From a virus, in IMG/VR virus record IMGVR_UViG_3300026078_000018: 64,000 bases of DNA. One strand, 5' to 3'. The position numbers and the translations under genes are program-made. The notes under the pieces were generated by a model. That model had not been told where the DNA came from. It saw only the letters and a list, made by a program, of their open reading frames with translations, and did not search any database. Each line of letters begins with the position of its first letter. The first letter of the stretch is position 1. Of this stretch, positions 1,058 through 7,290 are shown piece by piece.

Positions 1058-1702
1058 GTGGCTATCACCCCCGACGGAGGCTTCGCAGGCCCCCTGCCGC
1101 GGCCGGGCCTGAACGGCACCCTGTCCTACCCCGACAGCGCCGGAACCGTACACGGCTTCCAGATCCGCGTAGAGGCACTCACCCACGCCCTCAAGCCCGT
1201 CTTCGACGAATCCTCCGGACGCAATCGGCGCGCGATGTACCCGCACCGCATGTCCGACACGCAGTTCGTGCTTGGGCTGGTGACCGTCGGGCAGTCCGAG
1301 CGGCAGGCCTTCACCCAGTTCCTCGGAGGCTTCGCCGCCACGCTGCTGAACCCGGGCGCCAGCACGGTGTCGGTAATGACCGTGAACGTGCCGGTACGGA
1401 ACTTCACCAGGCGAGGGATTCCGCTGTCCGGTTTCGAATGGGGTGTGAAGCTCGGCCAGACGGTCTTCCACTCCCAGGTGGTTTTCGAGACGTCCTGGAG
1501 CCCTGTGGACGGGCCGTCGGATCCGGTCGCCTCCGGCGTTCCAGGCGCCTCGGCGGTCGGGGACCCGGCTGTGCAGTACTTCTATCCGTTCGGCACACAA
1601 CTGTCCGGGGACCAGGTGCCTGGCGGCGGTCCACTGCCGGAGTGGGCGCAGGTGCTGGCCGGGCTCGCGCGGCTGCTTGACCCGGCCAGCTGGGGGCAAT
1701 GA
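1058..1702 (+). CDS. putative baseplate/tail protein
   Basis: 214 aa, coupled to neighbours in the tail operon. Confidence 0.5.
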   Translation: MAITPDGGFAGPLPRPGLNGTLSYPDSAGTVHGFQIRVEALTHALKPVFDESSGRNRRAMYPHRMSDTQFVLGLVTVGQSERQAFTQFLGGFAATLLNPGASTVSVMTVNVPVRNFTRRGIPLSGFEWGVKLGQTVFHSQVVFETSWSPVDGPSDPVASGVPGASAVGDPAVQYFYPFGTQLSGDQVPGGGPLPEWAQVLAGLARLLDPASWGQ

Positions 1703-1703
1703 T

Positions 1704-4361
1704 ATGGGATCACTAATCTACGCACCGCAGGTGACGATCTACATTCGGACCGCCTCCGGCATCACCTACGACGTCTCCGACGATGTGACCGCAGGCCAGG
1801 TCGTCCGCCGCTCCGATGGCGTGTCCACGGCACAGTTCACCATGCAGAACGCGCGCCGCAAATATGACGAGGTCTTCACACCGAACGACCGTGTCATCAT
1901 CTTGGCAAAGCGGCTGGCATGGATGCGGATCTTCACCGGCTATCTGAACACGGTGCCGCTGCTGTCGATCTGGCCGACCGAGGTGACTTTGACCGCTTCG
2001 TGCACTCTGAAACGTCCTCAGTACTGGTTCTGGAACCCCATGACCCAGGCGACCCAGACCATGATCAGCAACGCGTTCGCCGCGGCCTCCGGGGACGCCT
2101 CCACCTCCGACGGCGGCGCGGGAGCCGCCGCGCTAGCGATCTTGAACAACGTCATGGGCTGGCCCCCGTCCAAAGCCCACATCGGCGCTATTCCTGCCCG
2201 CTGGCTCGACATCGCCTACAAGATCGCCCAGCAGGTCCAGTCGTCCGAGGGGGCCTCGGACCGGTTGGCCGCGCAGTTCTATTCGAACTTGACCGCAGGC
2301 GGCATCGTCGGCGGCGTCCCCAACGGCCCAGCCATCTCCGGTGTCCTCAAAGGCTCCTACGGCCCGTTCAGTGGCCAGCAGCTCCGCAACGCAGAGACCA
2401 TCTACAGCGTCGGGGTGTCCAAGGGTGCCTCCTTGGACGACATCACCGTGGCACTGATGGTGTCGATGGCCGGGGCCAGCCTCAACAACGCGATCCTGCC
2501 GAACGCCCAGGGGTACATGGGGCTGTTCCACCAGAAGCCCGCGGACGGCTGGGGAACCTTCGAACAGCTGCTCAACCCTACCTACGCGGCCTCCGCGTTC
2601 TTCGACAAGCTGTTGACGGTCGGCACCCGCTCCTCGCTGACCCCCGCGGCGCAGGCCCAGATGGTCTCCAAGATCCCGAACGTGACCAACTACGCCTCCT
2701 TCGAGCCCTACGCCGAGCAGATGGTCGCCGACATCTCCAAGGCCCAGGCTTCCAACGTGCCATCGGCCGCCAACAACCCGCTGCCGCAGGGCTTCAACCC
2801 CAACTCCCGGCCCACCGGCACCTCCACCGGCGCCGACTTCGCCACCACCGCCGTCAACTTCGTCCAGCAGTACCCGACCATCCCCTACAGCGAAGACTTC
2901 GGCGGCACCCAGATGGCGGTCATCTCCGCCTCGCCGCCCCCGGGACTGGACTGCAGCTCCTTTGTCCAGGCCGCCTATCTGCGCGCTCTCGGCTCGCTCT
3001 ACGACTGCCCACGCGTGGCCAGCGACCAGTCGGCCTGGTGCACCCAGATGCTCACCGCCGCCCAGGGCCTGGCCACTCCGGGTGCGTTGATGTTCAAGGG
3101 GCCCGGGAAGGGAAGCGCCAGCCACGTCGAGATCAGCCTCGGCGACGGCCATCACACCGTCGGCTCCCACCACTCCGGCACCTACGCCTCCATCGGCGGC
3201 GACGGAGCCGGATACTGGGACTACGCAGGCCTACCCCCGCGGATGACCTTCAGCATCGCCGGAGGCGCCCCCACCGCCCTGCAACTCGCTGGGGACGCAG
3301 CAGGAGCCAACGGCGGCACCACCACCACACCCACCTCCGCCGCGGCCGCAGCAGCAGCCGGGGCAGCCGGGCTCGTCGCAGCACCCAACCCCACCCCCTT
3401 CTCCTCCACCCCGGGCTACAACCCGAATGATCGTTTCGACAGCCTGTTCGGCGACAAGGCCTGGGTCGCCGTCTCCTCCTACGACGCCACCGACCCCGAC
3501 TACATCCTGGCCAACTCCCTGTCCGGCGCCCGCGCCCTGCTGGACGACCAGCCCCTGCTGCCGTATCTGAAACAACTGTTCGGCGCTTCGATGCGGAGCT
3601 TCTCCTCGGCGCCCAACGGCGACCTGATCGCATGGTTCCCGGACTACTACGGGATCTGGGGGACTGCGCCGGTCATGACCATCGAGGCTATTGAGTGCAA
3701 GAGTTTCGCGGTCAACTGGTCCGACGACTACCTGGTAACCCATCAATTCACTGCATCCACCCCCGGGGTCGGCGCCGGGGTCAACACTTTCGACCCAGCC
3801 ACCGGCTCCCTGTCCGGCACCGGCATCGACCCCTCCGTGCTGGTCTTCAACTCCTCAGTGGCCTCGATCGACATCCCCGCCGTGATGTACGCCCTTTTCG
3901 GGCTGGAAGCCACCGAAGCCGACGCCGCCAACTTCGCCGCCTGGATCTACCGCCGCTTCGGCGCGCGCCCGGACTACCAGGCTGTGCCGGGTCTGGTCGG
4001 ACCCGCCGCCGGATTCTTCGCCGCGCTGTACCTGTTCATGCGGCAGTGGGCGTTCCAGTACTCGGCGACGATGCCGCTGACGTGGATGCCGGAGGTGTGG
4101 CCGGGGATGCTGCTGCAGGCCCCGTGGGCCGATTTCCAGTGCTACGTCAACGCCGTGACGCACACTTTCCAGTTCGGAGAGAATGGGTTCTTCAACACAG
4201 ACGTGAACATCGCGGCCCCCGCGCGGATGCCGAAAGCCGACAACCCCAACGGCCACGTGCTGTTGGGGCTGCCGCTAGCCGGTGGGCTGGCACAGCCCTC
4301 CACCCCCAGCCCGATCCCGTCGAACGGCCCGCACGGCCGCATGTACACCGGCAACGACTGA
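1704..4361 (+). CDS. baseplate hub / tail-associated peptidoglycan hydrolase (lysozyme-like + NlpC/P60)
   Basis: Hub-like N- and C-termini; GLFHQKP..GWG..QLLNP.YAA..FF lysozyme-like segment; GLDCSSFVQ...HVEI NlpC/P60 motif. Confidence 0.8.
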   Translation: MGSLIYAPQVTIYIRTASGITYDVSDDVTAGQVVRRSDGVSTAQFTMQNARRKYDEVFTPNDRVIILAKRLAWMRIFTGYLNTVPLLSIWPTEVTLTASCTLKRPQYWFWNPMTQATQTMISNAFAAASGDASTSDGGAGAAALAILNNVMGWPPSKAHIGAIPARWLDIAYKIAQQVQSSEGASDRLAAQFYSNLTAGGIVGGVPNGPAISGVLKGSYGPFSGQQLRNAETIYSVGVSKGASLDDITVALMVSMAGASLNNAILPNAQGYMGLFHQKPADGWGTFEQLLNPTYAASAFFDKLLTVGTRSSLTPAAQAQMVSKIPNVTNYASFEPYAEQMVADISKAQASNVPSAANNPLPQGFNPNSRPTGTSTGADFATTAVNFVQQYPTIPYSEDFGGTQMAVISASPPPGLDCSSFVQAAYLRALGSLYDCPRVASDQSAWCTQMLTAAQGLATPGALMFKGPGKGSASHVEISLGDGHHTVGSHHSGTYASIGGDGAGYWDYAGLPPRMTFSIAGGAPTALQLAGDAAGANGGTTTTPTSAAAAAAAGAAGLVAAPNPTPFSSTPGYNPNDRFDSLFGDKAWVAVSSYDATDPDYILANSLSGARALLDDQPLLPYLKQLFGASMRSFSSAPNGDLIAWFPDYYGIWGTAPVMTIEAIECKSFAVNWSDDYLVTHQFTASTPGVGAGVNTFDPATGSLSGTGIDPSVLVFNSSVASIDIPAVMYALFGLEATEADAANFAAWIYRRFGARPDYQAVPGLVGPAAGFFAALYLFMRQWAFQYSATMPLTWMPEVWPGMLLQAPWADFQCYVNAVTHTFQFGENGFFNTDVNIAAPARMPKADNPNGHVLLGLPLAGGLAQPSTPSPIPSNGPHGRMYTGND

Positions 4362-4393
4362 GGAGGGGAACTTTGATCCGCGCCGGAGTGGCG

Positions 4394-4618
4394 ATGACGT
4401 CGCCCCAGAATCCAAACCGCCTAGGTGTCAAACGTGTGTTCATCAGGTCGATCGACACGGCATCCGACACGATCTACGCGACCGACCTCAACGGTGCCGA
4501 GATCCAGCTGCCGTGGCGCATCCGCCGCGTCGGGATCATCCCAGCTGTCGGCGACACGTGGCTGGCCGATACGGCACTGGGCTTCTGGTCGCTGGCTGCG
4601 TACGTCGTTCCCGAATAA
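4394..4618 (+). CDS. small baseplate spike-like protein
   Basis: ATG after GGAG; IPAVGDTW resembles the gpV/gp5 OB-fold motif; lies between hub and wedge. Confidence 0.5.
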   Translation: MTSPQNPNRLGVKRVFIRSIDTASDTIYATDLNGAEIQLPWRIRRVGIIPAVGDTWLADTALGFWSLAAYVVPE

Positions 4619-4633
4619 TGATCTTTCCGGCTA

Positions 4634-4817
4634 GTACGATTGTGAACCAGCACCACCGGATGATGACGTGTCCGGGCCTGACGGGAGTCCACGGCTCCCG
4701 GGGCATCTATCCCAGCAATCCACCGATCACGAGCCTGGGCAACGTCGAGTGGCTCACTCAACCTCCGAGCGCGACCGGGTAATGAACGGCCCGGTCACAC
4801 CTTCTTCCTCTGTCAGA
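4634..4817 (+). ncRNA. putative structured RNA, copy 1 of a tandem pair
   Basis: Shares blocks with the copy at 4821, with compensatory stem changes; TACGAT -10-like box at the start; strand inferred. Confidence 0.6.
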
Positions 4818-4820
4818 CTT

Positions 4821-4987
4821 GTACGATTACAGCCAGCACGACCGGATGATGACGTGTCCGGGCCCGGCGGGAGATCGTCACTCCCGAGGCGATACCTCAG
4901 TACCGTGGGCAACGTCGCGTGGCCCTCAATCCTAGGGGCGCGGCCGAGTAATGAACGGCTCGGCCACATCCTCCTTCTCGTGTCAGA
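4821..4987 (+). ncRNA. putative structured RNA, copy 2 of a tandem pair
   Basis: Conserved blocks CCGGATGATGACGTGTCCGGGCC, TGGGCAACGTCG and TAATGAACGG; stems covary with copy 1. Confidence 0.6.
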
Positions 4988-5023
4988 GAGGGCGCCTCCG
5001 CGCGGAATGCGCGAGGAGGCCCC

Positions 5024-5452
5024 ATGCACACCCTGGCACTGGCAGGCGGTGACCTGATCGCCACCGCGGCCGGATACGTCGTCATCGACGGCGCCGCGAT
5101 GGTCCGGCAGAACCTGGCCTGCGCACTGGCCGAGCCGATCGGCACCGACCGATTCCACCCCACCTTCGGCTCGACGCTGTCGCAGCAGATCGGCACGCCG
5201 ATGACAGACACCGAAATCGCCGGAGTCCGAACCGAAGCCGTCCGGGTGGTACAGGCACTCATCGCAGCACAAGGCGCGATGATCGCCGCAGACGCCGCTG
5301 CTGGTGCGCGCTCCCGGTTCTCCGCCGCTGACGTGATTGCGCAGCTCGTCGGTGTCAACGTCACGCAGACCCTCGACACCGCCAGTGTCATGGTGCAGGT
5401 GGAGACGGCAGCCGGGGCGACCCTGGGCTCGGCCACGATGGCGGTGGTCTGA
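5024..5452 (+). CDS. baseplate wedge protein, gp25/gpW-like
   Basis: L.EPIGTDRFHPTFGSTL motif; directly upstream of the gpJ-like gene. Confidence 0.8.
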   Translation: MHTLALAGGDLIATAAGYVVIDGAAMVRQNLACALAEPIGTDRFHPTFGSTLSQQIGTPMTDTEIAGVRTEAVRVVQALIAAQGAMIAADAAAGARSRFSAADVIAQLVGVNVTQTLDTASVMVQVETAAGATLGSATMAVV

Positions 5453-7290
5453 TGGGCGTGTCAGTCGACGACGTCTCGGCACAGATCCGAGCAGCGCTCG
5501 CGGTCGCCGACACCGAACTGGACACCAGCATCGGCTCTGTCACCCGCAAGATCATCGACGCGGTCGCCGAGCAGATCGCAGCTGCCTACGTCGACACCCA
5601 CCTGATCACTTACGCCTATGACGTGGATGCCAAAACCGGTGCCGACCTGGACGCTTTCACACAGCTTTTCGGGATCGCCAGACTTCCGGCCACACGCGCC
5701 GCCGGGGTGGTGACCTTCTCCCGGCCGTCCGGCGCCGGGGCCGCGGCCACCGCGTTCATCCCGATCCACACCGAGGTCCACGACGGCTCGTCCCCGGCGA
5801 TCGCCGTGCAAACCTCCACAGGCGCCGTCATGGACCCCGGGGTGACGTCGGTGTCGGTACCGGTGCAGGCAGTCGCCTCCGGGCCCAGCGGCAACCTGGC
5901 GGCCAACGCCGCGGTGAACATCGCCAGCCCGCTGCAGGGCATCACCTCGGTGACCAACCCGCAGCCGCTGTCCGGCGGTGCGGACGGCGAGTCCGACGGC
6001 GCGCTGCGCACCCGCTGGCGCAAGACGGCACTGCGCTCGCTGGCCGGAACCGAGCAGATGTATCTCGGGGTCGCCCTGGATGACCCGAACTGCACCGCAG
6101 CCAACGTGGTCGGCGCGTCCAAGGTGTATCGGGAGCAGGTGCAGATCGCCTCCGGCGTGGCCGTTTCCACGGTCACCGGCGCACAGTACGTATATATCAA
6201 CCCGGTGACGGTCGGCGCCGACATCGACAATGGCGTGATCGCGTTGAACGGCTTCGACTATACCTGGTCCGCTACTGTTCCTCCCCAGGTCAACGTGGTC
6301 AATTCGGCGGTGCTGCCCAATGGGACCGTGATCGATCTGGAATTCTCCTACACCTCGACGGCATCCCGTAACAGCCCCTTGACGAACATCACCAACCGGG
6401 TCGACGTGTGGTGCGGAGGTTCCCGGCCGACCCAGGGCAGCCAGGTGGTGGCCATCCCGGCCAGCCCGCAGACGTTTTCTGCATCCTCGTCCTCACCCCT
6501 GTATACCGGGATCTTTACGCGGCTCGACGGCAACCACCCGACCACGGCGAACGTCTTCATCCCGTTGGCATTCGGACCGATCCTCACAGTGCCCGCCACC
6601 ATCACCATCGGAGGCACGACCTACGGAGACGCGCAGGCCGCGGGGGTGGCCATGGGGACCGTGAGCGGCGGGGTCACCTACGCCTACCAGATCGTCCACG
6701 ACGACACTGCGTTCGGGTACTCCGCCAGCTCCAACTTCGGTCTGGAGTGGCAGGCCGCCGATCTGCCCACCGCAGGAACCACGTTCACCCTGTCCAACGG
6801 CTACACCTACAACCAGGTCCCCGCCAGCGTGCAGGCAGCGCTCGACAACTGGCGCCTGGTCGGCATCGACGCCAAGGCGCACGCCGCGCGGGTGCGCCGG
6901 ATGCAGCTGTCCCTGGCCGTGGTCTACTCCCCCGGCATCACCCCCTCGACCGTCAACGCCAGTATCACCACGGCACTGAGCAGCTTCCTGCAGGGGCTCG
7001 GCTTCGACTCGGTGCTGCGCGCATCGGATGCGATCAACATCGTGCACGGAGTCCCTGGGGTGGACAACTGTAGGTTCGCCAACGGCTCCGACTACCCCGG
7101 GTTCACCTTCGGCGCGGCCAACTCCTACCAGGTCGGCATTCAGCAGGTGAACGTGCACGGCGCCGTCAGCAGCTCCTACGTCGATGCCACCGGCCGCCCA
7201 CTGGACGTCGAATTCGGCGACGCCGATCTGCCCCAGCTGTATCAGATCAACGTGCTGACAAAGGCCGAGAACACCTTCGGCGCGTACTAG
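5452..7290 (+). CDS. baseplate J-like wedge protein
   Basis: GADLD..LFG..R..AT.A.G, G.SGN, and GGADGESDGALR.R motifs. Confidence 0.9.
   Translation: MGVSVDDVSAQIRAALAVADTELDTSIGSVTRKIIDAVAEQIAAAYVDTHLITYAYDVDAKTGADLDAFTQLFGIARLPATRAAGVVTFSRPSGAGAAATAFIPIHTEVHDGSSPAIAVQTSTGAVMDPGVTSVSVPVQAVASGPSGNLAANAAVNIASPLQGITSVTNPQPLSGGADGESDGALRTRWRKTALRSLAGTEQMYLGVALDDPNCTAANVVGASKVYREQVQIASGVAVSTVTGAQYVYINPVTVGADIDNGVIALNGFDYTWSATVPPQVNVVNSAVLPNGTVIDLEFSYTSTASRNSPLTNITNRVDVWCGGSRPTQGSQVVAIPASPQTFSASSSSPLYTGIFTRLDGNHPTTANVFIPLAFGPILTVPATITIGGTTYGDAQAAGVAMGTVSGGVTYAYQIVHDDTAFGYSASSNFGLEWQAADLPTAGTTFTLSNGYTYNQVPASVQAALDNWRLVGIDAKAHAARVRRMQLSLAVVYSPGITPSTVNASITTALSSFLQGLGFDSVLRASDAINIVHGVPGVDNCRFANGSDYPGFTFGAANSYQVGIQQVNVHGAVSSSYVDATGRPLDVEFGDADLPQLYQINVLTKAENTFGAY

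Follow-up and report, generated by a model that had tools for sequence, protein, structure and literature searches.

The window, a stretch of 64,000 nt, is part of a 153-kb contig from a rhizosphere metagenome, and its DNA has a G+C content of 67%. Positions 4619–5023 form a 405-nt non-coding gap between an ORF of 82 amino acids and a gp25/W-like baseplate gene (W), which is followed by a Baseplate_J gene. Upstream of the 82-aa ORF, an 894-aa protein (1677–4361) has a match to a PHROG family of virion structural proteins and contains an NlpC/P60 domain. The nearest cultured phages, as judged by the W protein, infect Eggerthella, Rhodococcus, and Mycobacterium, at an identity of only 34%–42%. 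No tRNA or tmRNA genes were found in the window with ARAGORN or the Rfam tRNA/tmRNA models. The gene 5′ of the gap occurs in two forms among relatives, of 82 or 243 residues (L015:130–861; L017:734–1465); the first ∼80 residues of the longer form are homologous to the shorter one, and its extra C-terminal domain has no family match. Which form is present does not depend on the presence of the RNA units described below. At the 3′ end of the gap, CCUCC pairs with the GAGGAGG ribosome-binding site of W in a hairpin that is kept in close relatives whether or not they have the RNA unit. Given this hairpin, W may be translated only with coupling or after an unfolding step.

The gap consists of two diverged tandem units, at about 4620–4812 and 4807–4990 (Table 1). 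Over ∼190 aligned nt the units are roughly 71%–80% identical (blastn E values of 4e-20 and 1e-21), and their starts lie 186–187 nt apart, in agreement with the spacing of 187 given in an earlier sequence-only reading of this DNA. The motifs listed in that reading are all in place, including CCGGA/TCCGG and the CGGGAG/CTCCCG stem with different loops, as are the stems whose two strands differ together between the units: GACCGGG/CCCGGTC against GGCCGAG/CTCGGCC around TAATGAACGG, and GCTC/GAGC against GCCC/GGGC. The GGG/CCC stem of unit 1 is likewise present, and its counterpart in unit 2, given there as GAGG/CCTC, is read here as AGG/CCT. Both units contain the loop GACGT and the downstream ACGTC. 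A 20-mer, CCGGATGATGACGTGTCCGG, occurs within the 64 kb only at 4656 and 4842 even when three mismatches are allowed, against a chance expectation of 0.01, and no further copies of the unit were found in the window. The two invariant 10-nt loops each hold in-frame tandem stop triplets, UGAUGA (4661–4666) and UAAUGA (4780–4785), and have the pattern U-R-A-U-G-A in common; UAAUGA is also the end of the 82-aa ORF (4616–4621).

Table 1. Features of the gap and its flanking genes, in window positions; paired strands are separated by a slash
Feature	Position	Strand	Remarks
Upstream 82-aa gene	4373–4618	+	TTG start; no Pfam or PHROG match
TACGAT box, units 1 and 2	4636–4641; 4823–4828	+	Outside the conserved core
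Unit 1 P1 hairpin, CCGGA/UCCGG	4656–4660/4671–4675	+	10-nt loop UGAUGACGUG; P1 covaries in L037
Unit 1 putative pseudoknot, loop GACGU with ACGUC	4665–4669/4742–4746	+	Both strands invariant in 7/7
Unit 1 P1b, GCCU/GGGC	4676–4679/4737–4740	+	Within the pseudoknot span
Unit 1 P2, CGGGAG/CUCCCG	4682–4687/4695–4700	+	Covaries
Unit 1 P3, GGG/CCC	4701–4703/4711–4713	+	
Unit 1 junction G-A-GUGG, then P4 and P5	4747–4796	+	
Unit 1 P4, GCUC/GAGC	4752–4755/4767–4770	+	3 pairs changed on both sides
Unit 1 P5, GACCGGG/CCCGGUC	4773–4779/4790–4796	+	Invariant loop UAAUGAACGG (4780–4789); 3 pairs changed on both sides
Unit 1 pyrimidine-rich tail	4797–4819	+	Ends UGUCAGA; similar tail in unit-less L033
Unit 2	4842–4965	+	Architecture as unit 1; 151.9 bits against model R2
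Unit 2 P1	4842–4846/4857–4861	+	
Unit 2 putative pseudoknot	4851–4855/4912–4916	+	
Unit 2 P1b	4862–4865/4907–4910	+	
Unit 2 P2	4868–4873/4881–4886	+	
Unit 2 P3	4887–4889/4895–4897	+	
Unit 2 P4	4922–4925/4936–4939	+	
Unit 2 P5	4942–4948/4959–4965	+	Loop 4949–4958
Hairpin burying the ribosome-binding site of W	4990–5023	+	−26.9 kcal/mol, z −4.1; outside the repeated unit
gp25/W-like baseplate gene	5024–5452	+	phrog_2669 and phrog_43; homologues P0002–P0016

The sequence-only reading did not recognise the family. Indeed, a cmscan search of the whole window against Rfam 15 gave nothing at gathering score. Relaxing the E value to 10 over 4000–5600 returned four weak hits, of which only sR28 (11.8 bits against a threshold of 39) touches a unit; a minus-strand aspS hit of 17.2 bits covers the tail of unit 2 and the hairpin at the ribosome-binding site. 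The units also show a likeness to box C/D (K-turn) RNAs, in that the loop sequence AUGAUGA agrees with the C box, RUGAUGA. Unlike these RNAs, which are archaeal and eukaryotic, the units lack a 3′ D box (CUGA) and a terminal stem, the 3′ end being UGUCAGA or, in L037, absent, and AUGAUGA lies in a hairpin loop predicted to be engaged in a pseudoknot. A blastn search of 50,697 phage records matched nothing to the window gap, and for the L037 element it gave chance hits alone. Pattern scans of IMG/VR, JGI metagenomes, and GTDB genomes gave chance hits (L001, L003–L012, L029, and L030), with the exception of L037. No host copy was found by the pattern scan of one genome each from 185,579 species, which gave a chance hit only. 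A search for targets complementary to the P5 or P1 loop yielded nothing beyond chance-like coding matches, and no description of the element was found in a general literature search.

Homologues at the same baseplate site were surveyed in contigs from 12 W-protein database clusters at 65%–96% identity. W is preceded by a single unit in L013, L014, L019, and L021, which belong to related uncultured high-GC myophages; the gap sequences of L015 and L016 are identical to that of L014, and those of L022 and L023 to that of L021. L017/L018, L024, L025–L028, and L032 have no unit and a gap of only ∼55–60 nt, and the unit is also missing in L033–L036, though their W protein falls in the 90%-identity cluster of the window's own. 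No copy was found in a 166-kb phage (G002) with a W protein 44% identical. The 196-nt gap of L031 (72% W-protein identity) was considered and rejected as a homologue, the sequence at the site being unrelated. In L019, a 93-aa ORF of no known family is encoded on the minus strand between the RNA unit and W (L019:2567–2848). This reverse ORF and the unrelated insert at L031:2805–3000 together indicate that the junction is an insertion hotspot. A relative in DNA run X3 (∼90% identity) has one unit, matching unit 1 over its 5′ half and unit 2 over its 3′ half; the joint skips 186 nt, and the unit looks like a recombinant of the two. Run X3 contained only a small share of the words and was used only for this single-unit relative. 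The absence of units in close relatives, the presence of zero, one, or two copies, and the joint between units 1 and 2 indicate that the phages can dispense with the element and that recombination alters its copy number.

A distant copy, L037, was found by a two-block pattern scan of IMG/VR. It scores 40.9 bits (E value 1.5e-9) against a covariance model built from the six local sequences without L037. The contig is a complete 46.9-kb phage (G001) with terminal repeats and 53% G+C, and no similarity to the window phage was detected beyond the RNA element. The element is shortened (L037:5226–5357) and lies in a region of small ORFs. About 360 nt upstream of it there is a 71-nt tRNA-Ser(GCU) call (L037:4795–4865) that has no long variable arm. 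A tRNA-Pro(CGG)-like gene (L037:5339–5452), whose anticodon loop has a 38-nt insert and which ARAGORN called only with introns allowed, starts 0–4 bases from the last P5 pair. Both calls lie beside the conserved core, the tRNA-Pro-like one reaching into no more than the final bases of the match to the model. The tRNA-Ser, two small ORFs, the element, and the tRNA-Pro-like gene make up a cassette of ∼870 nt that is absent from a sister phage (L045, helicase 80% identical). The missing cassette indicates that the element is accessory in this second lineage too and is unconnected with baseplates as such. Window positions 4610–4630, at the 5′ side of unit 1, resemble L037:5203–5225, at the 5′ side of the distant copy (CCGAATAA, four bases, CTTTCC); the adjoining upstream ORFs are unrelated and their frames differ, and the likeness could be due to chance or to a shared 5′ edge of a mobile piece.

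Covariation was assessed in seven distinct sequences from two unrelated phage lineages, six of them from one lineage. In this alignment, whose fitting to the proposed structure by the model somewhat favours that structure, 95.0% of the predicted pair cells hold standard pairs. Changes on both sides were observed at 8 pairs (13 cells); none of 500 shuffles reached these values, and in controls with the partner strand slid, only 25%–48% of cells were paired. The double changes fall in P1 (one), P2 (one), P4 (three), and P5 (three). Selection on RNA structure, proposed earlier from the two window units, is thus borne out across both lineages. Eleven G-U cells would read as A-C mismatches on the opposite strand, which places the RNA on the + strand. 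The folding energy of a single unit is unexceptional on either strand (z −1.0 to −1.3), and support for the structure therefore comes from the comparison of homologues. Three blocks are invariant in all seven sequences: GGAUGAUGACGUGU, which in unit 1 lies in the P1 region, AACGUCG(A/C)GUGG, and AAUGAACGGC inside the P5 loop. The TACGAT box, taken in the sequence-only reading as a −10-like element starting each unit, was rejected as a unit promoter: it is present in both window units, L013, and L014 but absent from three of the seven sequences (L019, L021, and L037). A consensus promoter scan gave nothing on the + strand.

In the fold that the comparison supports, the core is a 5-bp hairpin bearing the invariant 10-nt loop, in which GACGU would face the downstream ACGUC and form an H-type pseudoknot. 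The predicted geometry has a stem 1 of 5 bp, a loop 1 of UGAU, a stem 2 of 5 bp, and a loop 2 of a single G. The long third loop carries a variable domain closed by the short helix P1b, which is GCCY/GGGC in the window lineage and GGCC/GGCC in L037 (manual alignment); the domain contains two hairpins, P2 and P3, in the window lineage and only a 12-nt loop in L037. It is followed by the invariant junction G-N-GUGG and two covarying hairpins, the last with the invariant loop YAAUGAACGG.

The pairing of GACGU with ACGUC, proposed in the sequence-only reading, is plausible as part of this modelled fold. In L037, P1 is ACGGGA/UUCCGU instead of ACCGGA/UCCGGG, which amounts to a C-G to G-C double change and a G-C to G-U change. 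This covariation of P1 places GACGU in a hairpin loop facing the invariant ACGUC. The strands of the pseudoknot themselves, on the other hand, show no covariation; like most of P1 they are unvarying, and so are compatible with the fold rather than proof of it. RNAalifold on the six sequences preferred a nested model, with a helix A between UGAU and GUCA of the 3′ tail and a long-range helix B, GACGU-G-UCCGGG with CCYGGGC-A-ACGUC, which uses bases of P1 and the pseudoknot. The alternative long-range helix is also the lowest-energy nested fold in four of the six copies of the window lineage, and comes within 1.3 kcal/mol of the lowest in a fifth. The nested model was rejected as the conserved fold because L037 keeps P1 by covariation and breaks the inner part of helix B, because unit-less relatives also have the UGUC tail, and because the tRNA-like gene follows P5 almost at once in L037. 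The pyrimidine-rich tail itself, judged from its occurrence in unit-less relatives and from the 0–4 bases that separate P5 from the tRNA-like gene, is probably flank and not core.

A lead on expression came from a rhizosphere metatranscriptome of a different study (run X2). A 518-nt contig from this run consists of 18 leading letters, which we take to be the Illumina Read-2 adapter, and window positions 4664–5163 without a mismatch. The sequence is therefore present in an RNA library; as DNA can occur in such libraries, this is a lead and not proof of transcription. The adapter junction marks a fragment end at U4664/G4665, inside the invariant 14-mer and between loop 1 and stem 2 of the putative pseudoknot, and could stem from processing or self-cleavage, or else be an artefact of duplicates in the library. 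At the corresponding site of unit 2 (4850/4851) the contig is unbroken, and its continuation into the W gene is as consistent with a leader as with a free RNA. Positions 3400–4663 are covered by no contig of run X2, an absence to which we give no weight.

Taken together, the units very probably represent a real structured RNA family outside Rfam that is encoded on the + strand and is accessory to its phages. We infer that it is an RNA module that is optional and moves horizontally, as opposed to a control element for baseplate genes, because zero, one, or two copies are found at the site among near-identical phages, and because an unrelated phage has a short version in an inserted cassette, between tRNA and tRNA-like genes. 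The reading that we favour, mechanism included, has about an even chance of being right: the RNA would act through its + strand fold, being made within a rightward transcript, freed from it by processing, and persisting as a stand-alone stable RNA, with the three invariant single-stranded blocks as one binding surface for a protein or an RNA partner. It is favoured because the three blocks are kept across unrelated phages and because the element is independent of the downstream gene. Stable RNAs of this general description are encoded in the tRNA cluster of phage T4 (species 1 and 2, rnaC/rnaD), which are structured and of unknown function. The copy in G001 is similarly placed among tRNA genes (tRNA-Ser and tRNA-Pro-like); in contrast, the window element is in a late baseplate operon without tRNA genes.

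The fragment end in run X2 raises a different interpretation, in which the unit is a self-cleaving or nuclease-guided processing element that is cut at U4664/G4665, at the junction of loop 1 and stem 2, and parts the upstream from the downstream RNA, leaving a defined and protected 5′ end on the latter. The contig does begin exactly there, right after the adapter and inside the invariant 14-mer, and catalytic cores typically combine a pseudoknot with invariant blocks, of which there are three here. A tRNA-like gene adjoins the element in G001, and theta ribozymes, which are small phage ribozymes, also sit beside tRNAs (PMC10879173). Nevertheless, we regard this interpretation as unlikely: the end is seen in a single contig of a single study, PCR duplicates or tagged-primer libraries can give a like picture, and the same contig is uncut at the unit 2 site. 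With the known small phage ribozymes (hammerhead, twister, pistol, hatchet, and the HDV-like theta), the element shares a compact predicted pseudoknot, invariant single-stranded blocks, a patchy accessory distribution, and, in one phage, a tRNA-like neighbour. It differs from them in having no match to a Rfam ribozyme model at E values up to 10 and no defining core, and cleavage is hinted at by one adapter junction only. A hammerhead has a three-helix junction with the core CUGANGA, GAAA and an NUH cleavage site; by inspection, this core is absent, the junction strands being G-N-GUGG and GC/AC and the candidate site lying between GAU and G. The nested double pseudoknot of HDV-like and theta ribozymes, in which P1 begins at the cleavage site and its 3′ strand comes directly after the P3 hairpin, is absent as well, since 8–28 nt and one or two hairpins lie between the equivalent strands. 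That the unit is a new class of self-cleaving ribozyme or self-guided processing RNA, cut between GGAUGAU and GACGUG, is quite improbable; if true, a stable RNA would be released by the cut and the downstream message would acquire a new 5′ end.

Another rival reading makes the unit a decoy or antitoxin-like RNA that would bind and neutralise a host RNA-binding defence protein in the way that pseudo-ToxI acts against ToxN, with tandem copies raising the dose. There is precedent in phage PhiTE, in whose escape mutants pseudo-ToxI at an intergenic locus expanded from 1.5 to 4.5–5.5 repeats (PMC3475682). The parallels are tandem units with a pseudoknot (predicted here) at an intergenic phage locus, RNA that is presumably excised from a longer transcript, and a copy number of zero, one, or two among near-identical phages, with the X3 unit resembling a recombinant; the accessory status in two lineages is also as would be expected. 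The units, however, measure 130–190 nt against 36 nt for ToxI and show no sequence similarity to it or to other Rfam families. Type III antitoxin RNAs (ToxI, CptI, and TenpI) are direct repeats of ∼34–45 nt, whereas the period here is 186–187 nt and most relatives are single copy. The pseudoknot that characterises them is predicted and invariant in the units, with covariation in P1 and none in the pseudoknot. No cognate ToxN-like toxin gene was found nearby, where the flanks are baseplate genes, nor a host locus in the species scan. A decoy function is thus a doubtful prospect.

An action in cis on W, as a riboswitch or translational control leader working through the ribosome-binding-site hairpin, is likewise not probable. 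The element does lie directly 5′ of this strong hairpin, and the X2 contig spans it into W. Tandem aptamers are known in riboswitches. Against this, phages with a W protein in the same 90%-identity cluster and with the same hairpin have no unit. What lies downstream also varies: it is W in the window, L013, L014, and L021, the reverse-strand ORF in L019, and the tRNA-like gene, not an ORF, in L037. Finally, a DNA-level signal (a protein operator or a recombination or packaging site) or a small protein gene is largely refuted and very improbable, for although CCGGA-N10-TCCGG is an inverted repeat and an ORF (4668–5057) is open across both units, the compensatory changes and G-U pairs are strand specific, the motif occurs only at this site in 64 kb, and six-frame translations share no frame, the conserved blocks falling in all three frames across copies, as with GGGCAACGTCG.

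With seven sequences so far, the element constitutes a new RNA family, though its general type, that of orphan pseudoknotted phage RNAs, is familiar. Phage structured RNAs with strictly invariant cores are often ribozymes, ligand sensors, or counter-defence decoys, and here three invariant blocks and a predicted pseudoknotted core are kept between phages that are otherwise dissimilar. At ∼115–165 nt, the RNA is small and can be synthesised, which makes self-cleavage, protein binding, and an anti-defence role directly testable; if no such role holds, RNA family catalogues would still gain an entry. Such variation in presence and copy number typifies accessory genes, which are gained and lost among closely related phages, and the junction between the 82-aa gene and W acts in these phages as an insertion hotspot for non-coding cargo.
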